A stretch of DNA of 12,808 nt, from UHGV virus genome UHGV-1333727. One strand, given 5' to 3'. This stretch comes from a virus. How positions within the stretch are numbered: the stretch's first letter is position 1; the number at the start of each line of letters is the position of its first letter. The notes below the pieces were generated by a model. That model ran no database searches and had not been told where the DNA came from. It worked only from the letters and a program-made list of their open reading frames with translations. Made by a program: the position numbers and the translations under genes. This document shows, piece by piece, positions 1-11,845 of this stretch.

Positions 1-138
1 CAAAAACGCTACGTGATACACGATGTGGCGCTCTTTGACCAACCACGATCTGCAAAAATCCAAAATTACCCACAAAACAACCTCACCGGCGAGCTAAAAC
101 ACGCATGGTGCTACGACTGCATATCTTTAGCGGTCTAG
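1..138 (+). CDS. possible 3' end of a CDS that starts upstream of the window (partial)
   Basis: Frame 1 is open from base 1 to TAG at 136-138 (45 sense codons, ...RYVIHDVALFDQPRSAKIQNYPQNNLTGELKHAWCYDCISLAV*); the other plus frames and all minus frames are closed by stops. No start is visible and an open stretch this short can occur by chance. Confidence 0.2.
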   Translation, partial: QKRYVIHDVALFDQPRSAKIQNYPQNNLTGELKHAWCYDCISLAV

Positions 139-171
139 CTCGTTATAGAGCGTTTTAGAGAGGATTTTAAA

Positions 172-273
172 ATGGACGGTAAACACGTTTTCGCCCTGGC
201 CTTTGCCATCGCTGCTGCAATCGCTGTTAACGTCGCTTTGTTCGGCGGTTGGTTCCTTCTTGTCAATCCATAA
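172..273 (+). CDS. small hydrophobic peptide, 33 aa (MDGKHVFALAFAIAAAIAVNVALFGGWFLLVNP), predicted single transmembrane helix
   Basis: ATG at 172 preceded by GAGAGGA about 7 nt upstream; stop TAA 271-273. Below the ORF-track size cut-off, found by manual translation. No homology check possible. Confidence 0.35.
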   Translation: MDGKHVFALAFAIAAAIAVNVALFGGWFLLVNP

Positions 274-440
274 CCTTCATACCAGTCTGTAAATCAAAAA
301 TTAGCCACCTGAAAGCGCCTCTGACGCAATAAGACACTGCAACCTGTGCAAACGGGTTACGCGGTGGGATTTTTGCGTTGTAGCGCGTTTTATTGATTGT
401 ATCTATGTAAAAGCAAATTACTAAATGCGAGGTATTAATA

Positions 441-2258
441 ATGTCTAGATATTTTATATCGATAAGAGGAAGTAAATTGTTTGCAAAAATTGATGAAGGA
501 ATGGTGTTTATGCGGAAGCGTAAATATCAAACGTGGAATCATTGGGGTAAAGAAAGCGAGTTTGTACGCATGGTGGCCGGTGGCTATTGGAAGGAAATAA
601 CAGCGGTGGAAGCTGGCGATATTCAGTACGCTGATTGCAGCCAGTGCGCGGAAAATTGGCCTGAACTGTTTGATTATCATCCTGATGGTTTTCTGATTAG
701 TAAGGTGACTAGGGGGCGTGGGAAATGTCGTATTAAACCAGGCGATATAATTCGCGGGTTTAAATGCAAAAAAGGCACTGATTATGAACGTTTGCAAATC
801 GGTGTAAAAGATCGCTATTATCAACTGCATCGCGTTGTGTGGGAAATGTTTAACGGCCCTATTCCTGATGGGTATGTAATAGAAAACGGCGATAATTCAT
901 GCGCGAAAATTGAAAACCTGAAATTAATATCACGCGGCGAAAGAGGCATAAAACGTAAGCCTTGGGGAAATAGCGGTATCAAGGGCGTTCTATGGAATAA
1001 GGCGAAAAATAAATGGGAAGCAACAATTAAAGTTAATACAATAAATCACGGCTTTGGTTATTTCGATAATATTAACGACGCAATAAAAGAGCGCATCAAC
1101 GGCGAAATTAGATACTACGGTAAGCAAATGAACCACTTCCCTGATTATATCTCACCAGAAGAAGCGGAGCGCATAAAACAGCGTTATTACAAGGGTGACG
1201 AAATGAAACAAGAAAGTAACACGGAACCGCATGAACATGAGTTACCGCGAGTATTCAAATTTCACGGTCATAATATTAGCGTTAATGACGCCGATGAAAT
1301 CAATCTGATGGATATTGCTGCGGCGTATGGTATTAATGAGGATGAATTACGCCACCGCATTGAAAGCTTGAATAAATTACCTGGCTATATTTATTGCACT
1401 GAACAATGTGACATGCAGATCAAAAAAGGATATGCACCGCTTGAGATCGCAGGAATGATCGTGGCACGGATAGGAGCGGAAAAGGACAGGGTTGATTTAT
1501 CAGTAGCTTTTCGCAAATTTAAAGACAACCCTATCAGCGCGGCTATTGCGCAGCAAACAGATAGCAAACAGGTGGGAGATCTTAAATGCCAGGTAAAAAC
1601 GCTGGAGGGACAAATCAAGGAATTACATGGAGTGCTCAACATAGCGAGAGAAGATCGCGACAGCTACCAACTCCGCGTTGATTATTGGAAACACCAATAC
1701 AGCAAGGCGAATAAGGCATTTGGTGACGAACAGGGTAAACGCCAGAAGCTAGAAAGTGAGCGCGACAATCTGGTTAAAACTAATTGCGAACTAAGACAAA
1801 AGGTCAACGCTGCAAATAACGACGACGCAAAAGCGAAAGCTGCGGCAGACAAACAAACAATCAACGACATTCGTACAGATCTGGCAGAAGCGAAGGAAAC
1901 AATCAAAGCGCAACAACAGGAGGCAAGCAACAAGGCTCTAGTTATCAAGGGCTATCAGCTTAAAGTGGCAGAACTTGAGGATGATAAACTGGAACTGCAA
2001 AATAATGTGAACATCTTACAATCTGGCTATAACCAACTATCAGACAGATATAACAAACTGATTGCTCGCAACATGCAACGCCGGGCAGCACAAAAACGGT
2101 ACATGGGCGACCTGAAACAGCGTCAACAGCGCAATCATGAACGTTATCGTAAGCTGATAATGGCATTGCAAGACAAAGTAAAAGAATTACTGTACCGGCT
2201 CGATAAAAAGCCAGAAGACGGATTCTTTAGCAAGGTTAAAGGTTTATTTCACCATTGA
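441..2258 (+). CDS. HNH-endonuclease-like / AP2 DNA-binding domain protein with long C-terminal coiled-coil region (605 aa)
   Basis: ATG 441 with GAGGT 8 nt upstream. The segment ...YYQLHRVVWEMFNGPIPDGYVIENGDNSCAKIENLKLISRGE resembles the phage HNH_3 motif; ...GIKGVLWNKAKNKWEATIKVNTINHGFGYFDNINDAIKERINGEIRYYG matches the AP2 domain pattern (GV.W.K...KW.A.I.....LG.F....A..AY). C-terminal ~230 aa are K/E/Q/A-rich with heptad-like periodicity. Confidence 0.85.
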   Translation: MSRYFISIRGSKLFAKIDEGMVFMRKRKYQTWNHWGKESEFVRMVAGGYWKEITAVEAGDIQYADCSQCAENWPELFDYHPDGFLISKVTRGRGKCRIKPGDIIRGFKCKKGTDYERLQIGVKDRYYQLHRVVWEMFNGPIPDGYVIENGDNSCAKIENLKLISRGERGIKRKPWGNSGIKGVLWNKAKNKWEATIKVNTINHGFGYFDNINDAIKERINGEIRYYGKQMNHFPDYISPEEAERIKQRYYKGDEMKQESNTEPHEHELPRVFKFHGHNISVNDADEINLMDIAAAYGINEDELRHRIESLNKLPGYIYCTEQCDMQIKKGYAPLEIAGMIVARIGAEKDRVDLSVAFRKFKDNPISAAIAQQTDSKQVGDLKCQVKTLEGQIKELHGVLNIAREDRDSYQLRVDYWKHQYSKANKAFGDEQGKRQKLESERDNLVKTNCELRQKVNAANNDDAKAKAAADKQTINDIRTDLAEAKETIKAQQQEASNKALVIKGYQLKVAELEDDKLELQNNVNILQSGYNQLSDRYNKLIARNMQRRAAQKRYMGDLKQRQQRNHERYRKLIMALQDKVKELLYRLDKKPEDGFFSKVKGLFHH

Positions 2259-2339
2259 AAGCATTAGAACCACGTCATTTATGGCGGGTGATGTCAATTT
2301 TCTTTGTGAATATATATTCAGTAAACCGGAGAAAATAAA

Positions 2340-3008
2340 ATGTCTGAATTAATGGCGCTTAATGGGGCGAACGAAGTATTAACAATGTCTTCTCGTGAGA
2401 TCGCCAAGCTAACTGGTAAACGGCACGATCACATATTGAGAGACATTGACGCCATTGCCCCAAATTTGGGGGAATCAAGCAAATCAGTAACTTACAAAGG
2501 ATACAACAATCAAACACAGAGGGAATGGCTTTTAACTAAGCGTGACTCTTTGCTGGTTGTATCTGGCTATAGCGTTGAGTTACGTGCTCGCATCATCGAC
2601 CGCTGGCAGGAACTTGAAAAACGGGTACAGCAAAACGCCCCTGCAATTCCTCAAACATTAAGCGAAGCGTTGCGCCTTGCTGCCGATCTTGCTGAGGAAA
2701 AAGAACGGCTTGCACTGGTTAATAAGGAACTTGCGCCAAAAGCGGCTGTATGTGACGCGATAGTCAAAAACGATATGCACCGAACGGCTTCAGAGGTTGC
2801 TAAACCGCTGGGAATGTCAGCCGTAAAATTAAACAGAAAACTTTCGGCTGTTGGTGTTTACGATCTTCGCTGTCGCCGCCGTGTATTTAGTCAGTGGTTT
2901 ATTGATGAGGGCTACGGTGAAATGAGGGTAACTCACGATGGATATGAGCAGGCTGTATTCACTGCTAAAGGACAAGTATGGATCACTGAGCTTTTAACTT
3001 GTAACTAA
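2340..3008 (+). CDS. phage antirepressor, Rha-family N-terminal domain plus KilAC-type C-terminal domain (222 aa)
   Basis: ATG 2340 with GGAGA upstream. N-terminal ...LTMSSREIAKLTGKRHDHILRDIDAI... is the characteristic Rha regulatory-protein signature; C-terminal region resembles antirepressor KilAC domains. Assignment by recalled family signatures, not by search. Confidence 0.88.
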   Translation: MSELMALNGANEVLTMSSREIAKLTGKRHDHILRDIDAIAPNLGESSKSVTYKGYNNQTQREWLLTKRDSLLVVSGYSVELRARIIDRWQELEKRVQQNAPAIPQTLSEALRLAADLAEEKERLALVNKELAPKAAVCDAIVKNDMHRTASEVAKPLGMSAVKLNRKLSAVGVYDLRCRRRVFSQWFIDEGYGEMRVTHDGYEQAVFTAKGQVWITELLTCN

Positions 3009-3042
3009 GTATACAATTTGTTATTCGTGAGGAAATGACACT

Positions 3043-4161
3043 ATGTCACAAAGAAAGATAAGCGATGAGCAATTGATCGCTGAATATAACAACGGTTTAA
3101 CGTATAAACAGATCGCTGAAAAATATTGCATGTCAAAACGCAACGTCGAGCGTCTGGGCGCAAAACTTGCGAAACGTGGTTTATTATCAACACGCCGCGC
3201 GCCTGGTTTTGGCGTCAATGGCGAGTCGTTGCTAGTCGATAAAAACGGCAATGTGATCATGCGCTGGATTAAAACAGCCCGTGACCGCGACGAAATGGAA
3301 CAGCTAATGGAAGCGGCCCGCGACGCTTTCACGGATGAGATACCACGCGCGGAGGCTGTGCCAGTGCCTGAAATTGATTTCCAAAAAAGCCTGGCCCTTT
3401 ATCCGGTATTCGATCTGCATATCGGGGCACTTGCTCACAAAGCAGAATGCGGCGAGAGCTACGACACTGGGATCGCTGAGCGCGTGTTAAATGACTTCTT
3501 TGACTACGCTGTGGGCGCCGCGCCGATGTCTGAAAAAGCCGTTTTGCTTCTCGGTGGCGACCTGCTTCACTCTGATGGAATGGTTCCTGTTACACCAACA
3601 AGCGGGCACATTCTTGATCAAGATAGTCGCTATGCAAAACTTGTCTATGTAGCGATCCGGTCGGTACGGCGGGCGGTCGGGAAGATGTTGTTAAATCATA
3701 AGGATGTAGAAATCCAGGTGTTATCCGGCAATCACGACCAGTCAGGAATGATCTGGCTACGTGCTGCGCTGGCAGCTTTTTACGAAGACGAACCGCGCGT
3801 AACTGTTGATGTGTCCCCTGCTATCGTCCACCACACGCAGTACGGCAAAACATTCCTCGCTTACCACCACGGGCACACTATCAAAAAGCCAGAAAATTTA
3901 TTGTCGGCTTGCGTATCTGACTGGCGGGAGGATTTCGGCAAGTCTGCGGCGGTTTACGCTCATTGCGGGCACTGGCATCATCAACGGCTGATTGAATCAT
4001 CGTTAGGCGTTGTTGAGTATCACGGCACGTTAGCGGGTAAAGACGCTTACTCAACTAATGGCGGCTGGCGGTCACGTCGTATGGCAGCGGTGATTATTTA
4101 CAGCCAGGATCATGGGGAGATCGGGCGCTTTGTTTATTACCCTGAATATTCCATTTTGTAA
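3043..4161 (+). CDS. HTH-domain protein fused to calcineurin-like (Mre11/SbcD-type) metallophosphoesterase core; putative replication-associated protein (372 aa)
   Basis: ATG 3043 with GAGGA upstream; stop 18 nt before the helicase start. N-terminus ...GLTYKQIAEKYCMSKRNVERLGAKLAKRGL is HTH-like. Ordered phosphoesterase motifs: FDLHIG (res 123-128), GGDLLH (171-176), GNHD (229-232), HHGH (275-278), GHWHH (309-313). Confidence 0.85.
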   Translation: MSQRKISDEQLIAEYNNGLTYKQIAEKYCMSKRNVERLGAKLAKRGLLSTRRAPGFGVNGESLLVDKNGNVIMRWIKTARDRDEMEQLMEAARDAFTDEIPRAEAVPVPEIDFQKSLALYPVFDLHIGALAHKAECGESYDTGIAERVLNDFFDYAVGAAPMSEKAVLLLGGDLLHSDGMVPVTPTSGHILDQDSRYAKLVYVAIRSVRRAVGKMLLNHKDVEIQVLSGNHDQSGMIWLRAALAAFYEDEPRVTVDVSPAIVHHTQYGKTFLAYHHGHTIKKPENLLSACVSDWREDFGKSAAVYAHCGHWHHQRLIESSLGVVEYHGTLAGKDAYSTNGGWRSRRMAAVIIYSQDHGEIGRFVYYPEYSIL

Positions 4162-4179
4162 ACCGGAGGTAATGACATA

Positions 4180-5595
4180 ATGGTAACTGAGCAAATAAAC
4201 TCACTACGGCAGGAACGTGAAGCGTCAGTTATCGGCGGGCTGCTGTTAGGCGGCCTCACTCCTAACGCGCAAGATGTTCTCGCCACTCTGGATCCTGAAG
4301 TGTTCACGAGCCCGCTTTACAAACGTGCGTTTGAGGTTATCCGGGCGCAAGCCAGAAACAGGAATCTTATCGACGCGTTATTGGTTGGCGATGAGATTGG
4401 CAATGAAAACTTTGTTCCTCTGATGCAAACGGCGCGATCGTGTCCTTCTGCCGCAAACCTGAAAGGATACGCACAGCTACTACGTGAAGAGCACCAGCGG
4501 CGGCAGATGTTGGAACTCATCGACGATATGCGCTACAAACTGGAAACGGGGACGCTTGAGGTCGTCAAAGAGACGATGAAAGATTTTGATTCCCGGTATT
4601 CAAAATTGAAGGTAACGAAAGATAAGATCATTCCGGTTCTGTTGCGCGATGCGGTACAGGAATATACGGATGTTTTAAGCAAGCGCATGGAATGCGGTGT
4701 CAATTCTGACAACATCAAAACAGGTATAGAACCACTCGACGAAATGTTGGGCGGCATTAACGCTACTGATTTGGTACTTCTCGCCGGACGCCCTGGGTCT
4801 GGTAAATCTGCGTTGGCGCTGACAATTGCCCGCGCAGCCGCTGAACGCCCTTACCCTGGTGGTAAAGAACAGCGGGTTGGCGTTTTGCTCTTCACGCTTG
4901 AAATGTCACTCGATCAGATGACTGAGCGTGCTATCGCTGGCGCTGGTAATTTATCAACTGACTGCCTGCGCAATCCGGTAAAACTTGATGATGAGGGTTG
5001 GGCGCATGTAGGCCAGGGGATGAGCGCACTTGCTAATCTTGAGGTGTGGATCGTTGACGCGTCGCAGTTGACGGTTGAGGAAATACGCGCAACAACGGAA
5101 CGCATGAAGCAGGAACACCCGAACCTGGGTATGGTAATGATTGACTACATCGGTCTAATGAAGCTGGCTAAGGCCGAACGTCACGATCTCGCTGTAGGGC
5201 AATTGTCATGGTCGTTGAAGATGATGGCGAAAGAATTGCGCGTACCAGTGTTGGCGCTGGCGCAATTATCCCGCCGCGTTGAGGAACGACCGAACAAGCG
5301 CCCGAATAATTCTGATCTGCGCGATTCCGGGAATCTTGAACAGGACGCAGACCGGATCATCATGGTCTATCGCGACGGGTACTATGATGAACAGTCTGTT
5401 GCCCGCGAATATATGGAGATCATTGTTTCGAAAAACCGTCACGGGAAAACGGGGACTGTTTACCAGCGATTTGACGACAACGGCAATATCCTCCCTTGCG
5501 ACCAGGCCCGCGCAGCGTCTGCATGTATTCAGTCGATGAATCATCGCACAAGTCGATTTAACCAACGAAACAACCAGAATAACGCATCCTTTTAA
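4180..5595 (+). CDS. replicative DNA helicase, DnaB family (phage type, 471 aa)
   Basis: ATG 4180 with GGAGG upstream. N-terminal ...EREASVIGGLLLGG... DnaB N-domain signature, Walker A GRPGSGKS, ...MVMIDYIGLM..., ...LAQLSR..., and DLRDSGNLEQDADRIIMVYRD (DnaB motif H4/arginine finger region). Confidence 0.95.
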   Translation: MVTEQINSLRQEREASVIGGLLLGGLTPNAQDVLATLDPEVFTSPLYKRAFEVIRAQARNRNLIDALLVGDEIGNENFVPLMQTARSCPSAANLKGYAQLLREEHQRRQMLELIDDMRYKLETGTLEVVKETMKDFDSRYSKLKVTKDKIIPVLLRDAVQEYTDVLSKRMECGVNSDNIKTGIEPLDEMLGGINATDLVLLAGRPGSGKSALALTIARAAAERPYPGGKEQRVGVLLFTLEMSLDQMTERAIAGAGNLSTDCLRNPVKLDDEGWAHVGQGMSALANLEVWIVDASQLTVEEIRATTERMKQEHPNLGMVMIDYIGLMKLAKAERHDLAVGQLSWSLKMMAKELRVPVLALAQLSRRVEERPNKRPNNSDLRDSGNLEQDADRIIMVYRDGYYDEQSVAREYMEIIVSKNRHGKTGTVYQRFDDNGNILPCDQARAASACIQSMNHRTSRFNQRNNQNNASF

Positions 5596-5615
5596 TTAAC
5601 TTGAGCAAACGGCTT

Positions 5616-5650
5616 ACCGGAAAGTTGACCGCTTTCTGGTGGCTGTTTTT
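5616..5650 (+). terminator. candidate intrinsic terminator/attenuator between helicase gene and nin-like operon
   Basis: ACCGGAAAG (5616-5624), loop TTGACCG, CTTTCTGGT (5632-5640, one G-U pair), then GGCTGTTTTTGTG. The U-tract is offset about 5 nt from the stem, so likely weak. Confidence 0.3.
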
Positions 5651-5674
5651 GTGCTTAAAACGAGGCGAAAAACA

Positions 5675-6232
5675 ATGAGCATTGAACTTGAAGCAAAAAT
5701 TATCAATATCCTTGAACTTGATGGCATCGACACAATGCACCAGTTACGCCAGAAAACAGGATTATCAGCGGAATATGACGAAGCCGGATGCTTACCTGAG
5801 ACAATTAAACACTTAATCGACACTGGTATTGTTGAGCGTGTATATACATATTTTGGACCGCGCCGCCGCTTGTTGGGGTATCGAATTAAATATTTGTATG
5901 CGCAACGGCGCGATCGTGTGGCGGCGTTATTTAGTGACTACAGCGTTAAAAAGCGTATGCGCGACATTAGCGCTGAAACGGGAATACCGTGGAATTATCT
6001 TTCTCGTACTATGCGTTTAATGGTGATTGATGAAACGCTTTGCGTTGATCCAAATAGGCACGGGGTTAATTTTTACTCACTGTTTAAACCTGGGCGATTC
6101 GGTCACGCTAATGATTTGGCGTTTGACTTTGACAGTCGTCTGAACGAATACCGGAAAAATAACGGCCTGCTACCGGATAAACCAGTATTTGAGATTGAAA
6201 AACTTAACGGCGAAACGGGGTTGGAATTATGA
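5675..6232 (+). CDS. hypothetical protein (185 aa), first gene of nin-like operon
   Basis: The ORF track starts at a GTG (5639) with no RBS; the ATG at 5675 has GAGG about 9 nt upstream and is preferred. Stop overlaps the next start (ATGA at 6229-6232). No recognisable motif. Confidence 0.75.
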   Translation: MSIELEAKIINILELDGIDTMHQLRQKTGLSAEYDEAGCLPETIKHLIDTGIVERVYTYFGPRRRLLGYRIKYLYAQRRDRVAALFSDYSVKKRMRDISAETGIPWNYLSRTMRLMVIDETLCVDPNRHGVNFYSLFKPGRFGHANDLAFDFDSRLNEYRKNNGLLPDKPVFEIEKLNGETGLEL

Positions 6233-6435
6233 GACGGGTAATTTTTTATTCAGTTGAAACGTTTGTTGACGAATCTCACTTTAAATTCGCATGCGATCCT
6301 TGCGGCACAATGGTTTATACGCCGCCACTAATGCGCAAGTATAAGCACGTAAAATTTAACCGGGCTTTTGTGCCGATTCGTTACGCTTTGCAGGCGTTGC
6401 GCGGTGAATTACGAAACACAATGCGGATTGTGTAA
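6229..6435 (+). CDS. hypothetical small protein (68 aa)
   Basis: ATG 6229 overlaps the upstream stop (ATGA), indicating translational coupling; contains a single CDPCG motif. Same-strand position inside the operon supports a real gene. Confidence 0.6.
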   Translation: MRRVIFYSVETFVDESHFKFACDPCGTMVYTPPLMRKYKHVKFNRAFVPIRYALQALRGELRNTMRIV

Positions 6436-6444
6436 GGGGCGACC

Positions 6445-6642
6445 ATGAATAGGGAATTAGATTTGACCGTGGAAGACTTAAGCACAATTGCGGAATACAT
6501 GCGCGGCGACGATCCTGATAAGCCTGTTGTTGTTGATATGAGGTACTTAAAAAGCGCTTTTATGACAAGCTCGCGCCTAATTTCTTTGCGGGCGATCATG
6601 TATGCGCGGGCACAGTGGAAAAATAGCAACGGTGTATCATGA
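6445..6642 (+). CDS. hypothetical small protein (65 aa)
   Basis: ATG 6445 with AAGGGG 5 nt upstream; its stop overlaps the ninB start (ATGA at 6639-6642). Confidence 0.6.
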   Translation: MNRELDLTVEDLSTIAEYMRGDDPDKPVVVDMRYLKSAFMTSSRLISLRAIMYARAQWKNSNGVS

Positions 6643-7070
6643 GGCAAATCAGATTTGAAATAGTAAACGACGCCGTAAAAGAAAACGCTATCAGGCAGAT
6701 AAGGGAGATCCAGCCTGATAGCAAAAGCCCGCTGGTAATTACCATCCAGGAGAAAACCCGCTCACTGAGTCAAAACAGCCTTTTATGGGCGCTATTAACA
6801 GACGTTAGCGATCAGGTTAATTGGTACGGTAAAAAGCTGTCACCGGAAGACTGGAAGGCGGTATTCACTGCCGGGCTTAAGAAATATGGCGTTGTCCCTA
6901 ATCTGGATAAATCCGGCTTTGTTGTGCTGGGAACGTCAACCAGCCGGATGAGTAAAACAGAATTTAGCGAATTAATTGAACTGATCTACTCGTTCGGCGC
7001 TGAACATAATGTTCAATGGTCTGGTGACACTAAGTTGAACGAGGAATTTATAAAACGCTGGGGGCAATAA
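6639..7070 (+). CDS. ninB: NinB-family recombination protein (lambda NinB/Orf homologue, 143 aa)
   Basis: Protein aligns by eye along its length with lambda NinB as recalled from memory: shared blocks ...VITIQE..RSL.QN.LW..L.DVS.QV.W.G..L..E.WK.VFTA.LK...VVPNL...GFVV.G.STSRM...EF.EL.ELI..FG.E..V.WS... Confidence 0.9.
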   Translation: MRQIRFEIVNDAVKENAIRQIREIQPDSKSPLVITIQEKTRSLSQNSLLWALLTDVSDQVNWYGKKLSPEDWKAVFTAGLKKYGVVPNLDKSGFVVLGTSTSRMSKTEFSELIELIYSFGAEHNVQWSGDTKLNEEFIKRWGQ

Positions 7071-7246
7071 TGGTTAGTTATTACATGGCTAAACCTACAG
7101 GCATTTTGTATAAGATTGATGGCGAATACGTTTATTATTTTCACAACCAGGCGCGTGATTGGCGATTGTGTCACGCGCACTTTAAGCACGAAATAGAAAA
7201 TCACCCTGAATATTTTATCAAAGTTGACAATGTAACTGTGGCGTAA
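7070..7246 (+). CDS. hypothetical small protein (58 aa, MVSYYMAKPTGILYKIDGEYVYYFHNQARDWRLCHAHFKHEIENHPEYFIKVDNVTVA)
   Basis: Found by manual translation (below ORF-track cut-off). ATG at 7070 overlaps the ninB stop (TAATG); stop TAA 7244-7246, 14 nt before the next gene's start. Confidence 0.5.
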   Translation: MVSYYMAKPTGILYKIDGEYVYYFHNQARDWRLCHAHFKHEIENHPEYFIKVDNVTVA

Positions 7247-7260
7247 TTGAGGATAAGCAA

Positions 7261-7920
7261 ATGAATAAACTTAAAGTAATTGGCGTGATTAGCCATCGCA
7301 CTAACCCTGAGTGTTACCCATCGTTTGAGGTAACAACATGCCGCACAGAATATAATTTTGGATCATACTATTTATTGGGTGTTCGCGCGGATGGCGGCAC
7401 TTATTCGGTTATGGCTGCAAGCTGGAAATTTGATAAATACGCTAATTTATCTAATAAGGATGATGACGGCATGAATAAAGAAAGTGAGATCATTGATGAA
7501 TTAATCGAAGATGAGCGGCATGATTGCGAAACGCAACCGGAAAAAACTGAATGGTTGGCAGGCGAAAAGCCTCCTGTTGGTGTGTGGCTTGATTGTGTAG
7601 GTCTTACGAGCGGAACGGTTCTCGATGTCGTTAAATTTAAATATGTTGGTGATAAATGGGCTATATGTGAAAGCAAGGAAGATTTAGGCTTAGAGAGGCC
7701 GATATCATGGACGACATGCGCTTTCAGGATTCATGTTGGTCCGATAGAAAAGGCGCTTGCTGAAATAGCGTTCGCACTTGCAACTAAGGTCATGGGTGAA
7801 GACGCGGCAAAAGAGATTGACTTTAAACGTGACAACGATTTTACGTGCGATTATCGCAATATGGCGCAAGCAATTATTGATGGATGTATCGGACACGTTG
7901 AATACACGGGGAAAAGATAA
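7261..7920 (+). CDS. hypothetical protein (219 aa), two regions separated by an acidic linker
   Basis: ATG 7261 with GAGGA 8 nt upstream; stop overlaps the downstream start (TAATG at 7918-7922). No recognisable catalytic motif. Confidence 0.8.
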   Translation: MNKLKVIGVISHRTNPECYPSFEVTTCRTEYNFGSYYLLGVRADGGTYSVMAASWKFDKYANLSNKDDDGMNKESEIIDELIEDERHDCETQPEKTEWLAGEKPPVGVWLDCVGLTSGTVLDVVKFKYVGDKWAICESKEDLGLERPISWTTCAFRIHVGPIEKALAEIAFALATKVMGEDAAKEIDFKRDNDFTCDYRNMAQAIIDGCIGHVEYTGKR

Positions 7921-8150
7921 TGGATAAGACGGCAACAATTCTTCTTAGTCGCCCTGCCATCTGCCGTATGCTTGGGGGAATTAGCAGGGGAACGTTCTAT
8001 TCATGGCGTAAAAAGTGGGAGGAAAACGGAACTCCATTCCCGGACCCTGTTGATGTGTTGGGGACCGGGCGGGGCGTCATGTACCGCTATCAGGAGGTGA
8101 TGCGGTTCTTTGATAAGATCGGATTAACGCCAGCCAGGGATAAGACGTAA
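7920..8150 (+). CDS. AlpA-family (MerR-like) small DNA-binding protein, probable excisionase/integrase regulator (76 aa)
   Basis: ATG 7920 with GGGGA upstream. ...LLSRPAICRMLGGISRGTFYSWRKKWEENGTPFPDPVDVLGTGRGVMYRYQEVMRFFD fits the AlpA/Xis pattern (HTH followed by 'FP.P...G.R...W...EV..W'); it sits next to an integrase. Confidence 0.8.
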   Translation: MDKTATILLSRPAICRMLGGISRGTFYSWRKKWEENGTPFPDPVDVLGTGRGVMYRYQEVMRFFDKIGLTPARDKT

Positions 8151-9304
8151 TCCGCAAATTTATTTAACGCCTCCTTTTGTTCATCAAGATAATCATATTT
8201 GTCGTACACTGCCAGTATTCCCCTGAGTGAATGGCCTAATACCTTTTCCGCGACATGTACCGGAACACCTATAGCTGAAAGGTGTGTACGGCACGTCCTG
8301 CGGAGGTCGTGACAGGACCATGATTTGCCTCCCATCCTTTTACGCACGAAGATTGCAGCTACTTTTATCACTGATGCGTTTACTGGTCTGTTCCCTCCGT
8401 TAATCACTGGCGGGAACACATAATCATACTCATGGGAGGATAATACCTCCCTGAGCATTTTTATCGACAAATCTGATAATCCACGCCTGATTTCACTTCT
8501 TGTCTTCGCCACCGCCGCCGGGACGGTCCATACTCCGTTGTCCAGGTCGAGGTGTTCCCTTCTCATTTTCTGCAACTCCCCCACCCTGCACCCGGTTAGC
8601 AATAATAGCTTTAATGCTATCTTGTTCTGACGGTAGATCTGCGAATCATCCACCGTTCGCCAGAAATGGCCTATTTCATCGCACGATAAATAACGCTCGC
8701 CAACCGCATAATTTTCGCCTACGTCAACAACCCTGATATTGTTTATCGCTGTACTGGTCATTAGCCCGCGCCGGATAGCGCTGTTCACAACAATCTTCAT
8801 TCGCTTGAGTATCAGCCCAGCCGTAACCGCGTGGCCCGCCGCAGTGATCTCGCCGAATATGTCCATCCATTGTTTAGTGCTGACATCATCGGCAATATAC
8901 TCACCGAATTTATCGACAACATGGCGCTTAAGCGCGCTCCTGACGTCATTATATGCAACCAGCTTAATAACGTTCGGCAGGGATAAATAGTCACTCACAA
9001 TGGCGCTTATTGTTAATTTGCCACGCTCAATATTTATCGCTTGCTTTACTGAAACAGTTGGGTTTTTCCCCTTCGCTAATAGCTCTTTGTATTCTGCCAC
9101 CGCGTAGCGTGCATCTTTCAATGTCATACTGCCGTAATCGCCAATCTTCATCCTTACAGGCTTACCGTTGAACCTGTACCTGAACTGGAAAATAATTTTC
9201 CCCTTCGGGCTTATCCTGGCAGACAAGCCGTCGCGATCCGCTATCTCGTTCGGGCCGTCATATGGCTTGTTTGCTATTGCGCGTAATTTCGTATCCGTCA
9301 GCAT
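8090..9304 (-). CDS. int: tyrosine recombinase / integrase, P4-type (404 aa)
   Basis: ATG at 9304 (minus) with AGAGG 7 nt upstream. N-terminal LTDTKLRAIANKP...GLSARISPKGKIIFQFRYRFNGKPVRMKIGDY is the P4-type integrase arm-binding N-domain; catalytic region has ...TGCRVGE (Arg), HDLRRT (H-x-x-R) and ...GHSLRGILAVYDKYDY (His...Tyr). Confidence 0.95.
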   Translation of the reverse strand: MLTDTKLRAIANKPYDGPNEIADRDGLSARISPKGKIIFQFRYRFNGKPVRMKIGDYGSMTLKDARYAVAEYKELLAKGKNPTVSVKQAINIERGKLTISAIVSDYLSLPNVIKLVAYNDVRSALKRHVVDKFGEYIADDVSTKQWMDIFGEITAAGHAVTAGLILKRMKIVVNSAIRRGLMTSTAINNIRVVDVGENYAVGERYLSCDEIGHFWRTVDDSQIYRQNKIALKLLLLTGCRVGELQKMRREHLDLDNGVWTVPAAVAKTRSEIRRGLSDLSIKMLREVLSSHEYDYVFPPVINGGNRPVNASVIKVAAIFVRKRMGGKSWSCHDLRRTCRTHLSAIGVPVHVAEKVLGHSLRGILAVYDKYDYLDEQKEALNKFADYVLSLAGVNPILSKNRITS

Positions 9305-9320
9305 TCTGATACCTCTTTTT

Positions 9321-9342
9321 TTTGGTCACGATTTGGTACACA
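9321..9342. repeat. 22-bp direct repeat, copy 1 (TTTGGTCACGATTTGGTACACA)
   Basis: Matches copy 2 at 9562-9583 at 21 of 22 positions; contains GGTCACGAT. Confidence 0.7.
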
Positions 9343-9350
9343 GTTTTATC

Positions 9351-9472
9351 TGAACGGATATTAACACCATTGAACGGATTTAAACACACGACAGGATGAT
9401 TGAGATGTAACTTAGTGAATTTAAATGATATTTTTTATCAACCGTGAACGAGTCTGAACGGGATTGAACACC
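9351..9472. repeat. cluster of five TGAAC(G)-type iteron-like motifs
   Basis: TGAACGGATATTAACACC (9351-9368) and TGAACGGATTTAAACACA (9371-9388) are 20 bp apart; TGAACGAG (9445), TGAACGGGA (9455) and TGAACACC (9465) are phased at exactly 10 bp. Confidence 0.6.
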
Positions 9473-9561
9473 ACGAATCGTTACTGTCTGGAATGGTTAG
9501 CTTTGTGAATAATAATTTATAAAACAGTATGTTGCAGTGCTTTTGTTTTTGGTTTTGGGTA

Positions 9562-9583
9562 TTTGGTCACTATTTGGTACACA
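9562..9583. repeat. 22-bp direct repeat, copy 2 (TTTGGTCACTATTTGGTACACA), preceded by phased TTTGG tracts
   Basis: Copy of 9321-9342 with one mismatch; contains GGTCACTAT. Immediately upstream, TTTTTGG / TTTTGGG / ATTTGGT recur at roughly 8-10-bp spacing (9545-9580). Confidence 0.7.
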
Positions 9584-9608
9584 AAAAGAAACGAGGCGTT
9601 AGCCTCGT
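9583..9608 (-). terminator. rho-independent terminator of tail-fibre gene
   Basis: On the minus strand: stem ACGAGGC, loop TAAC, stem GCCTCGT (plus 9591-9608), followed by UUCUUUUU (plus 9583-9590), about 35 nt after the stop at 9641-9643. Confidence 0.6.
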
Positions 9609-9640
9609 TTCGCGCGGCGATGTTCTTCGCACATCACCTC

Positions 9641-11845
9641 TTATTCTTCGCTTCCGGTCAACTGACTGATAAGCGCTTCAAGTTTTGCTATCCGCTCATC
9701 CATTGCGGCAATGTTAGCTTTCAGGCTTGCGTTCTCCTCTTCCAGTTCGGTGACGCGGTTATCCGTTTCGCGTGCCACCTGGACAAGTAAACCAGTCACC
9801 GCCGCATAGTCAACATTAAGGTAACGTGTTTCTTCTCGTAGCTCGTTGCCGTCAACGGTCGGACCCTGCAATTCTTCACCGTAACGAGTAAACGATCCTA
9901 CGGCTTCCGGTAGCGCCTCCATTACTTCCTGTGCAATAACGCCAGCATAAGGAAGGCCGTTTTCCTTGAGCGTGTAGGTGTACCCGTTCATTTTGCGGAT
10001 TAATTCAGTGGCTTCACCTATAACCTGAATGTTATCTTTAAGGTCGCGGTCAGATGATTGGTGAAGTGTCTGGCATGTGATATTACCGCTAACTTCTGCG
10101 GTGGCGCTTTTAATCTTATACTCTACTGAGAGATCACGGACTTCAACCCTCCCATCGTGGCGAACAATAAGATCACCGTTTGTTTCACCTTTTGCGTTTT
10201 TAGCCCTGATGTGAACTTCTCCAAGCGTATCAGTATTTGTAGGCGCAAAAATAACGCCGCGTTCCGACTGATCCTCATTTTGGAACCATACATGGGCGGT
10301 TCCACTTTTTGAACGCAGGTATAGTGAAGGTGTTGCTTTAGTGATCGACAGATCACCTGACATAATGTCGCCGGATTTTTTCACCTGCGCATCGTTAGTT
10401 ACGTTACCAAGTCCAACATCCGATTTCGACGGCTTGTATTTGGTTCCGTATAGCTCATTTATGTTAAAAGTACCATTGTTGAGTCTATTATCGTTACTAG
10501 AGTAAATCTTTACTCTACCGCTTTCGTAATCGATATTAATAGCTGACCACGTATCGCCGCACCGCGAGAATATACCAGAACCGTGGCTGAAAATTGTTGA
10601 TTCGCTACCTGTTGGTTTTCCTGACCTCCAGAAACACCCACCTTTCGCCCTTAGCTCTTGTAGTAGTTCCTTATCGGTCATTTTACCATCCAAAGTAAGA
10701 CCGCTACCGCCAAGACCAAAAGCGCCTATAAGCATAGCATTAGAAAGGCCTAAATCTGCTTTAGTAGGTTTGTTTACCTGGTCGTAAATCCTTGCTGCTG
10801 GGCTTTCAATAAATCCTGAAGGTGCATTGTCTTGTTTAACAAATCCTTCAGGAATGTATAATTCCGTGTTGCCAGTCTGCGCCAGCACCGCTACTTTTGT
10901 GCCTTGAATATAAGATCGCTGGTAGCACCAGACCTCGATATAGCCGTCACCTTTAACCAGGCCGTAACGCATTTGACTATTATTGGGAAGGTTTGGTGAA
11001 CCGAGTCGGCGAATACTTAAAAATTTAGATATATTTTCACTGGTTACTTCGCCTGTGTCGTTAAGATCTCGAGCGGAGATCTCTATAAAGTCAATATTCC
11101 CGTAACTTAAACCGTAGCCACCGCCATTTGTAACCATTAGCGTTAAGTGGCACTCTGAAAACTTTGGATCGCTAAGTTTAGCAATCTTAACGTAAGCGCC
11201 ATTACCGCTAGTATTAACAGGCCAAGCACATTGGACCATTGGGCTGGTAAGCCTTCCCATTTGATTCAGATATTTTTGCGCCCTGTTCTCTGATGTTTTG
11301 GCGTTGGTTTCGCTTGTTTTCGCTGCCGTCTCACTTGCCTTAGCGTTGGTTTCTGATGTTTTCGCTGCCGTGGCGGATTTTGCAGCCGCTGTTTTTGACG
11401 CTTCTGCTGCGTTTTTGTCGGATCCTGTTTTTTGAGCGTTGGCGGTTGATTTGGCTGTCTCTGCGCGAATGTTGGTAAGAAGCTGATCCAACTGACCTTC
11501 GCCGCCAAAATCCTCCCACCACTCGACAGCGGCGGCGATCTCTGTTTCCTTGCCCTGGTAGTAACGCAGGGTTTCAGCCACATCCTGAGCAAGCCCATCA
11601 ACTGAGATCGAGTCAGATAGCAGGATGCTGAATTTTGTCCCGGCAGGGATGGCGGGGTTAGCCGCTGGCGTCACTGACAGTTCAGTGCCGCTTTTAATTT
11701 CTGTGATGGTAAAGATCTGTACCGGATTGCCAACAGCAATGAGCGTGCAACCTACACGAATAAGAGAAAGCGGCGCGGAAAAGTTTGTTCCCGTGCCTGT
11801 AACAGTATTGCCGTTGATGGCAATTGTTCCAGTTGTGTAAATCAT
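9641..11845 (-). CDS. phage tail fibre protein with Stf-like Ala/Lys/Thr/Ser repeat region and C-terminal intramolecular chaperone (peptidase S74-like) auto-processing domain (734 aa)
   Basis: ATG 11845 (minus) with GGAG upstream. Residues about 125-190 carry AAKTSETNAK-type repeats like those in lambdoid side tail fibres. C-terminal ~140 aa (...SSDRDLKDNIQVIGEATELIRKMNGYTYTLKENGLPYAGVIAQEV... then coiled coil) match the endosialidase-type chaperone domain with the Ser...Lys (S-x4-K) dyad. Confidence 0.9.
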   Translation of the reverse strand: MIYTTGTIAINGNTVTGTGTNFSAPLSLIRVGCTLIAVGNPVQIFTITEIKSGTELSVTPAANPAIPAGTKFSILLSDSISVDGLAQDVAETLRYYQGKETEIAAAVEWWEDFGGEGQLDQLLTNIRAETAKSTANAQKTGSDKNAAEASKTAAAKSATAAKTSETNAKASETAAKTSETNAKTSENRAQKYLNQMGRLTSPMVQCAWPVNTSGNGAYVKIAKLSDPKFSECHLTLMVTNGGGYGLSYGNIDFIEISARDLNDTGEVTSENISKFLSIRRLGSPNLPNNSQMRYGLVKGDGYIEVWCYQRSYIQGTKVAVLAQTGNTELYIPEGFVKQDNAPSGFIESPAARIYDQVNKPTKADLGLSNAMLIGAFGLGGSGLTLDGKMTDKELLQELRAKGGCFWRSGKPTGSESTIFSHGSGIFSRCGDTWSAINIDYESGRVKIYSSNDNRLNNGTFNINELYGTKYKPSKSDVGLGNVTNDAQVKKSGDIMSGDLSITKATPSLYLRSKSGTAHVWFQNEDQSERGVIFAPTNTDTLGEVHIRAKNAKGETNGDLIVRHDGRVEVRDLSVEYKIKSATAEVSGNITCQTLHQSSDRDLKDNIQVIGEATELIRKMNGYTYTLKENGLPYAGVIAQEVMEALPEAVGSFTRYGEELQGPTVDGNELREETRYLNVDYAAVTGLLVQVARETDNRVTELEEENASLKANIAAMDERIAKLEALISQLTGSEE

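Follow-up and report, generated by a model that had tools for sequence, protein, structure and literature searches.

What does a phosphoesterase with a helix-turn-helix (HTH) do when it is encoded immediately upstream of a phage replicative helicase? The question is raised by virus genome UHGV-1333727, of which a stretch of 12,808 nucleotides (nt), referred to here as the window, was analyzed. An open reading frame (ORF) on the plus strand at 3043–4161, with its ATG at 3043 and its TAA at 4159–4161, encodes a protein of 372 amino acids (aa) that consists of an N-terminal HTH and a metallophosphoesterase domain. A preliminary description, made from the sequence alone, placed this gene in the replication-initiator slot of a lambdoid module and proposed that the product might be a nuclease-type initiator, a recombination-dependent replication factor or an enzyme degrading a host signalling nucleotide. 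We judge it somewhat better than an even bet that the protein is a metal-dependent nuclease, tethered to DNA, that serves in early phage DNA metabolism and has its closest functional counterparts in Bxb1 gp47 and A10ZJ24 Gp48. This reading is favored because the predicted di-metal site, the histidines H176 and H231 and the DNA-binding fusion are all intact and conserved; because helicases, resolvases, recombinases and a 3'-phosphatase recur among the neighboring genes; and because experiments supply two precedents for a phage metallophosphoesterase that stands alone and has its gene among those of replication.

Catalytic domain and predicted DNA-binding module

The metallophosphoesterase β-sandwich domain (aa 114–366; 3382–4140) contains five motifs in order: motif I, FDLHIG, from aa 123 (3409–3426), with D124 and H126; motif II, GGDLLH, from aa 171 (3553–3570), with the putative bridging D173 and with H176, the histidine of the GDxxH signature; motif III, GNHD, from aa 229 (3727–3738), with N230 as predicted metal ligand and H231 as putative general acid; motif IV, HHGH, from aa 275 (3865–3876), with H276; and motif V, GHWHH, from aa 309 (3967–3981), with H310 and H312. 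When conservation was scored across 131 distant homologs of approximately 30–57% identity, D124, H126, D173, N230, H231, H276 and H312 proved invariant, H176, D178 and H310 were conserved in at least 90%, and H278 in at least 85–90%. Conservation of at least 90% also extends to a family-specific loop that follows motif II, VTPxSGHxLDxDxR (aa 183–196; 3589–3630), in which T184 is invariant, D192, D194 and R196 reach at least 90%, and the structural model is of low confidence at aa 188–193. Judged from these alignments, the conservation of the motifs is far beyond chance. On re-reading, the ORF length of 372 aa, the motif order and the residue numbers D124, H126 and N230 of the preliminary description were all correct.

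The AlphaFold2 model, for which 57 homologs were used (mean predicted local distance difference test score (pLDDT) 80.2, predicted template modelling score 0.72, core pLDDT above 90), lays out helices at aa 8–44, a β-hairpin at aa 58–78, a helix at aa 82–98 and an α/β sandwich at aa 114–366. All five motifs sit at the C-terminal ends of β-strands, as in the canonical fold. Fold and motif placement therefore confirm, at the level of the model, a metallophosphoesterase fold, and the complete and ordered set of calcineurin-like motifs claimed earlier is borne out by the sequence, by the conservation and by the predicted structure. A Foldseek search against the PDB placed Mre11–DNA and PolD at the top, followed by LpxH, Vps29, Rv0805 and GpdQ. 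By its model the protein appears nearest to the nuclease/phosphodiesterase branch and not to the protein-phosphatase branch, with a margin among the top matches that is too small for a subfamily name. Lambda NinI, a Ser/Thr phosphatase of the PPP type, belongs to the same superfamily and likewise comes from a phage early region; neither a close structural likeness to such enzymes nor a PPP-type motif II was found, in agreement with the earlier distinction from NinI.

The outcome of the profile searches that had been suggested was divided. The window protein itself gave no match to Pfam PF00149 or PF12850 at E ≤ 0.1, and NCBIfam returned nothing useful; among distant family members, 18 of 82 match Metallophos and 13 of 82 match Metallophos_2 at E ≤ 0.01. 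Direct sequence searches against PDB chains returned nothing meaningful, family profiles reached only Mre11/SbcD and GerE, both below threshold, and a fold search of BFVD returned only other uncharacterized phage phosphoesterases.

The N-terminal module (aa 1–80; 3043–3282) is modelled as a tri-helical HTH (helices at aa 8–16, 21–27 and 32–44) followed by a conserved β-hairpin "wing" at aa 58–78, in which G69 and W75 are nearly invariant. Conservation scores are 0.35 for the HTH helices, 0.46 for the wing and 0.53 for the catalytic domain. Only weak Pfam HTH matches are obtained with the window protein (aa 14–64); homologs match Sigma70_r4_2, GerE or HTH_23, and the family profile matches GerE at E = 0.015. 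An N-terminal HTH is detectable in many family members and its Pfam type varies (LysR, Fis, sigma70 r4, GerE, HTH_23 and others). The modelled helices, the matches of homologs and the profile match to GerE thus agree with the N-terminal HTH noted before, and the winged HTH is predicted to bind DNA.

Family membership and comparison with known nucleases

The protein matches PHROG 704 at 1.4e-140 (aa 4–368 against profile positions 2–387 of 390) and is 93% identical to mEp021_11, the gp11 of phage mEp021. A tblastn search found homologs in 2,039 of 50,697 phage records, with Escherichia, Klebsiella, Salmonella, Vibrio, Campylobacter and Rhodobacter among the hosts, and an exhaustive search yielded 4,421 clusters at 50% identity, of which 952 score below 1e-30. 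Just four of 72,556 records of plasmids gave a match, each of phage size, on which ground a plasmid origin was rejected; from these searches the family is very large and essentially phage-restricted. Its members, which also fall into pVOG VOG9929, include proteins of Drexlerviridae (T1-like), of Jerseyvirus/Kagunavirus and of other tailed phages, and the annotation of Klebsiella phage Sushi notes the same architecture of HTH and phosphoesterase. The window gene is therefore best described as a lineage-specifically placed addition to an already catalogued, functionally uncharacterized phage family. A search of the literature on retron triggers, Druantia, mEpimmI, T1 genetics and host-DNA degradation found nothing relevant to the phosphoesterase gene or gp11.

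The closest functional parallels are the cluster A mycobacteriophage enzymes Bxb1 gp47, L5 gp54 and A10ZJ24 Gp48, which are stand-alone phage metallophosphoesterases, expressed early and encoded among replication genes, with primase, Endo VII and DnaB-like helicase genes nearby. Both gp47 and, in M. tuberculosis, Gp48 are reported to be needed for replication of the phage DNA and to show DNase or exonuclease activity, and the published structural neighbors of gp47 (Mre11, DP1 and LpxH) are those of the window-protein model. The cluster A enzymes differ from the window protein in size (approximately 255 aa), in having no N-terminal HTH and in a motif I that begins at residue 10; moreover, gp47 has a second function as recombination directionality factor for a serine integrase, and the integrase of the window phage is of the tyrosine type.

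The likeness to Mre11/SbcD proposed in the preliminary description stood in part: the histidines of GDxxH and GNH agree with it and the fold is that of the same superfamily, but the protein has neither a capping domain nor a Rad50/SbcC-binding region and no gene for an SMC-type ATPase was found in the window. The accessory parts with which Mre11/SbcD bind DNA are replaced by the HTH, and the family profile matches Thermotoga maritima Mre11/SbcD at E 0.2. Taken together, the weak profile matches and the lack of these hallmarks indicate that this is no true Mre11/SbcD. A second parallel is the metallophosphoesterase (MPE) of the Pseudomonas putida Lhr-Core–MPE repair operon, a small nuclease that also has no capping domain or Rad50 partner, whose gene adjoins a helicase gene and which has the same GDxxH and GNH histidine pair. 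In that enzyme His81, equivalent to H176, is needed for nuclease activity and dispensable for hydrolysis of bis-p-nitrophenyl phosphate, and His113, equivalent to H231, is essential for DNA cleavage; the pair is required to cut single-stranded DNA and can be spared for the hydrolysis of generic diesters (PMC7826289). This 216-aa enzyme, which serves bacterial repair, has no HTH, its partner is Lhr, a superfamily 2 (SF2) helicase, and not DnaB, and its similarity to the PHROG 704 profile (E 1.3 for the nuclease MPE) is restricted to the GNHD region. As for the small subunit DP1 of PolD and the eukaryotic polymerase B-subunits, their OB-fold is missing from the window protein and the large root-mean-square deviation marks the superposition as partial only; no polymerase gene was found in the window, nor in any of those annotated regions of the mEp lineage that were examined.

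These parallels suggest how the protein may work. The HTH and wing would keep the enzyme on DNA, where a di-metal center with D124, H126, D173, N230, H276, H310 and H312 as predicted ligands, assisted by the nuclease-type histidines H176 and H231, would hydrolyze phosphodiester bonds at DNA ends, in single-stranded regions or in branched intermediates. Catalysis would proceed with neither a Rad50/SbcC partner nor a capping domain. Expressed from the early operon along with the DnaB of the phage, and encoded 3' of a separate, origin-containing O-like initiator gene, the enzyme would serve as an accessory nuclease in phage replication or recombination, in host-DNA breakdown or in the clean-up of DNA ends, and not as an initiator.

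Several observations weigh against this assignment. Fold similarity cannot separate nucleases from small-molecule phosphodiesterases, as MJ0936 and LpxH lie within 1 Z unit of SbcD. Comparison with a 27-sequence gp47 alignment by hhalign gave a probability of 48.7% (E 1.8e-4) over 133 columns covering motifs II–V, with motif I unaligned, and comparison of the family profile with the single Bxb1 gp47 sequence gave 13%; with E. coli SbcD the probability was 3% and only GNHD aligned. Values of 13–49% were considered insufficient for merging PHROG 704 with the gp47 family, and the sequence comparisons place the relationship with gp47 at the level of the superfamily, not of family membership. Phage metallophosphoesterases are themselves heterogeneous, and the literature on them is in part contradictory: D29 gp66 is reported to act on monoesters, diesters and cyclic AMP (cAMP), and one study reports Bxb1 gp47 to be without phosphoesterase activity. 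PHROG 704 members usually carry the labels "DNA repair exonuclease" or "putative phosphoesterase", and the name "exonuclease" derives from automated annotation; our literature search found no experiment on any member of the family. Finally, gene neighborhoods outside the mEp lineage are diverse, from a lysis cassette to an island among tail genes, and context therefore does not fix the biological role.

The replication genes and their initiator

The window shares 87–92% identity with the mEp021 group, temperate coliphages that are described as Nus-dependent, yet non-lambdoid (PMC11893012), so the lambdoid module of the preliminary description gives way to one of the mEp021 type. Here the phosphoesterase gene is preceded by a Shine–Dalgarno-like GAGGA at 3029–3033, 9 nt 5' of its ATG, and followed after 18 nt, as had been noted, by the gene of a phage DnaB-family replicative helicase at 4180–5595 (plus strand; Pfam DnaB_C 2.9e-76, Pfam DnaB N-terminal domain 3e-12, PHROG 19). 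The gap contains the GGAGG ribosome-binding site of dnaB (4165–4169), with neither a promoter-like nor a terminator-like site seen between the two genes, and a terminator-like hairpin with a 12-bp stem and a T-run (5614–5652) begins 19 nt past the dnaB stop codon. Because the gap is short, no separating site intervenes and the hairpin comes only past dnaB, co-transcription of the two genes is likely, in line with the co-expression proposed before. The hairpin has the longest stem among the terminator-like sites in nt 1–8200, where the total count of such sites is not above chance; it may be a terminator inside the early operon, which would suit the Nus-dependent antitermination of mEp021-type phages. 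The phosphoesterase ORF is intact in 36 of 36 comparable lineage loci, and its median ratio of nonsynonymous to synonymous substitution rates relative to the window copy is 0.071 (range 0.026–0.124), against 0.080 for DnaB; by this measure the gene is under constraint equal to that of the replicative helicase.

The arrangement of the two genes is also fixed within the lineage. Starting from the phosphoesterase, DnaB was found downstream in 41 of 41 mEp-like loci; starting from DnaB (at least 92% identity), the phosphoesterase was found upstream in 43 of 43, with a gap of about 20 nt in 40 and an HNH insertion in three. An HNH gene lies between them in four of the 41 loci (L001, 5136–5639; L040, L041 and L046) and is probably a mobile homing element using that junction; its presence implies that tight coupling of phosphoesterase and DnaB is unnecessary. 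In 46 loci outside the lineage, where the phosphoesterase is 45–71% identical, no DnaB-type gene occurs within flanks of 4.5–8 kb, and the helicases of two Drexlerviridae phages that were checked are of the DUF3987 and SF2 types. The survey of pairing with phage DnaB proposed earlier thus finds it fixed only in the mEp lineage.

A gene that lies directly 5' of dnaB in a fixed arrangement, is apparently co-transcribed with it and encodes an HTH could specify a replication initiator or DnaB loader, which would bind the origin through the HTH, recruit or load the adjacent DnaB and possibly nick the DNA. Bxb1 gp47 provides a precedent for a phage metallophosphoesterase required for replication, and the G38–G39–G40 order of SPP1 resembles the initiator–X–helicase order seen here. 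The initiator, however, is encoded elsewhere. Nucleotides 3–38 of the window (plus strand) hold the last 11 codons and the stop codon of an O-like replication initiator gene: frame 3 reads KTLRDTRCGAL*, compared with the C-terminal KTLRDTRAGAL* of the Lin1244_N-domain protein of the closest E. coli prophage (L007). It had been missed because the window opens 11 codons before its stop. In mEp021 and this prophage the gene order is a divergent LexA-type repressor gene, a small MarR-like HTH gene, a "replication protein" gene, variable cargo, phosphoesterase and DnaB.

The replication proteins of the mEp021 group (332–348 aa) have interchangeable N-termini, with Lin1244_N (7.8e-11) in one form and HTH_36 (1.1e-14) plus a weak DnaD_N in the other, joined to a C-terminal half that both forms have in common, about 190 aa long and 84–93% identical (L001, 1120–2118; L007, 5734–7038; loci L008–L046). 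The Lin1244_N form is preceded by a separate MarR-like gene of 84 aa. From the sequences, origin specificity seems to be exchanged as a module among phages of a single immunity group. At the junction of the variable N-terminal and conserved C-terminal parts of the L007 gene lie four GGTCA(T/G)GA 8-mers with an exact 11-bp spacing (6382–6422), flanked by AT-rich repeats (6344–6357 and 6422–6435). The corresponding homologous region is immediately to the left of window nt 1, and the array probably represents the origin of the phage, in the layout that lambda ori has inside gene O.

Against an initiator or loader role for the phosphoesterase, then, stand this separate upstream initiator with its internal iterons and swappable N-terminal domain, together with negative results for the phosphoesterase itself: no phased repeat array was found in window 2200–4300, in or around its gene, and no initiator or loader family match, the possibility raised in the preliminary description, was found in Pfam, NCBIfam or PHROGs. 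A pure loader would need no invariant catalytic center. Furthermore, the Drexlerviridae orthologs, which have no DnaB-type gene in the 4.5–8 kb flanks, are of equal length to the window protein, collinear with it and 60–67% identical, so that the mEp protein has gained no module that would explain a DnaB-specific role. We consider an initiator or loader highly improbable, and the nuclease-type initiator of the preliminary description is rejected at the same level, on the upstream initiator with its origin, the lack of iterons here and the lineage-limited pairing with DnaB. The framing of the enzyme as an initiator replacement is not supported, since the O-like gene ends at nt 38 and two cargo genes separate it from the phosphoesterase gene.

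The interval between initiator and phosphoesterase (window 441–3008; examined in L001–L046) is a variable cargo slot that holds, depending on the phage, a Rha/KilAC antirepressor, a zinc-ribbon protein, an HNH/coiled-coil protein or no recognized gene. In the window the first cargo gene (441–2258, plus strand) encodes a 605-aa protein with an N-terminal HNH_3 domain (Pfam 2.1e-11; PHROG 99, HNH endonuclease, 3.6e-36), a weak match to AP2 and an extended coiled coil. Its weak SMC-type matches at aa 370–583 (E 2e-5, far under the cut-off) come with no ATPase domain, and the C-terminal approximately 350 aa are read as coiled coil, an architecture that is unusual for a homing endonuclease. The second (2340–3008, plus strand) encodes a Rha/KilAC-type antirepressor (Pfam Phage_pRha 3.6e-17, ANT 2.2e-11; PHROG 63), whose presence and sequence differ among the 41 mEp-like loci. 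The zinc-ribbon cargo, which combines five DUF4379 zinc-ribbon and CapR repeats with a T5orf172 domain, is full-length as mEp021 gp12 and partially matched in many loci. A 26-nt stretch, 77% identical, occurs 5' of the antirepressor gene (2316–2341) and 5' of dnaB (4153–4178); its core, GTAAACCGGAG, spans the stop codon and ribosome-binding site, and it may be a recombination scar from module exchange, or chance.

Downstream of dnaB, a 197-aa protein encoded at 5639–6232 (plus strand) has no Pfam match and weak PHROG matches to a MarR-family regulator (2e-7) and a Ren-like exclusion protein (4e-4); it exists in the lineage in two divergent allelic forms, about 35% and 90% identical to the window copy. 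Farther right, the tyrosine integrase gene (8090–9304, minus strand) is followed not by host DNA but by the gene (9641–11845, minus strand) of a tail fibre that carries a Peptidase_S74 chaperone domain, an arrangement also seen in phage MagusPhagus. The tail-fibre gene beyond the integrase gene indicates that the window represents the phage (attP) form of the genome; by its sequence layout attP should lie at about 9305–9640, and no tRNA gene was found in the window.

Neighborhoods outside the lineage and the role of the family

Outside the mEp lineage the phosphoesterase gene is found in a variety of settings. In Jerseyvirus it belongs to a small island within the tail genes, beside a superinfection-immunity gene and an antirepressor gene; elsewhere it follows genes for a DUF3799 exonuclease and an AAA_24 recombinase, or is convergent to a PolA/primase–helicase module. 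In Drexlerviridae it stands at the end of an operon encoding an SF2 helicase, VRR-NUC and Dam, beside the lysis cassette, whereas in the temperate window phage it is directly 5' of dnaB. A published survey of Drexlerviridae found it in 508 of 522 genomes, directly 5' of the holin–endolysin–spanin genes (PMC13164509). Proximity to lysis genes is likewise seen in one phage of Vibrio and in the Rhodobacter phage RcPutin.

This placement, which recalls that of lambda Q, and the resemblance of the HTH to sigma70 region 4 and GerE (LuxR-like) would fit a transcription regulator that controls, for example, a late or lysis promoter, with the phosphoesterase as a sensor or accessory part. In the mEp lineage, however, the gene lies among replication genes and away from the lysis genes, the catalytic domain is better conserved than the HTH, and the type of HTH is interchangeable across the family. 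We regard regulation as a very unlikely primary function.

Another recurrent neighbor is a gene for a HAD-type PNKP 3'-phosphatase, which lies directly 3' of the phosphoesterase gene in the unrelated backbones of Klebsiella phage Sushi (L006, 5661–6149) and of a podovirus-like contig (L093, 8176–8757), where the phosphoesterase gene is placed between it and Endonuclease_7. Calcineurin-type phosphoesterase modules perform end-healing in bacterial Pnkp. The arrangement with a downstream PNKP-type gene is also present in the survey of Drexlerviridae, where polynucleotide kinase and deoxynucleoside monophosphate (dNMP) kinase genes most often follow the "exonuclease" gene in genomes without an SH3 gene (PMC13164509), and the products of P. 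putida MPE are mixed 3'-PO4 and 3'-OH ends (PMC7826289). These associations suggest that phosphoesterase and PNKP could form a nuclease/end-cleaning pair. An end-healing phosphoesterase proper, which with PNKP would strip 2',3'-cyclic phosphates, 3'-phosphates or other blocks from broken DNA or RNA ends after damage by host nucleases, we hold to be unlikely, though less so than regulation.

Some neighbors (dNMP kinase, dGTP diphosphohydrolase and thymidylate synthases) could point instead to small molecules as substrates. The superfamily includes cyclic-nucleotide phosphodiesterases, Rv0805 and GpdQ are among the fold matches, and the reported activity of D29 gp66 on cAMP agrees with a phosphodiesterase that acts on cyclic nucleotide or oligonucleotide immune signals in counter-defence, or in nucleotide metabolism. 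Yet a conserved DNA-binding fusion would be unexpected in such an enzyme, and the nuclease-type histidines are kept. No PADLOC profile matched at E ≤ 0.01, on which ground the identity of a defence system was also rejected, and no anti-defence link for the family was found in the literature; to our knowledge, the known anti-CBASS and anti-Pycsar enzymes have other folds. A small-molecule phosphodiesterase is in our view a quite unlikely alternative to the DNA-tethered nuclease.

Within the nuclease reading, a narrower proposal concerns the mEp021-type phages, in which the HTH–phosphoesterase might be an obligatory partner of the DnaB replisome: an editing nuclease, one that removes flaps or primers, or one that makes 3' ends for recombination-dependent replication. 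By analogy with Bxb1 gp47, which is reported to be indispensable for replication, this is conceivable, although we think it improbable. If it were true, PHROG 704 would represent a widespread and unrecognized group of replication nucleases, guided by an HTH and independent of Rad50, in phages that do not encode their own DNA polymerase. The gene is near-universal among T1-like phages and is also present in temperate coliphages of the gut. Knowing its substrate and the reason for its DNA-binding domain would close an annotation gap in thousands of phage genomes, among them many candidates for therapy of Klebsiella, Salmonella and E. coli infections. Such knowledge would further tell whether phage DNA replication generally requires stand-alone metallophosphoesterase nucleases, which is what the studies of mycobacteriophages suggest.

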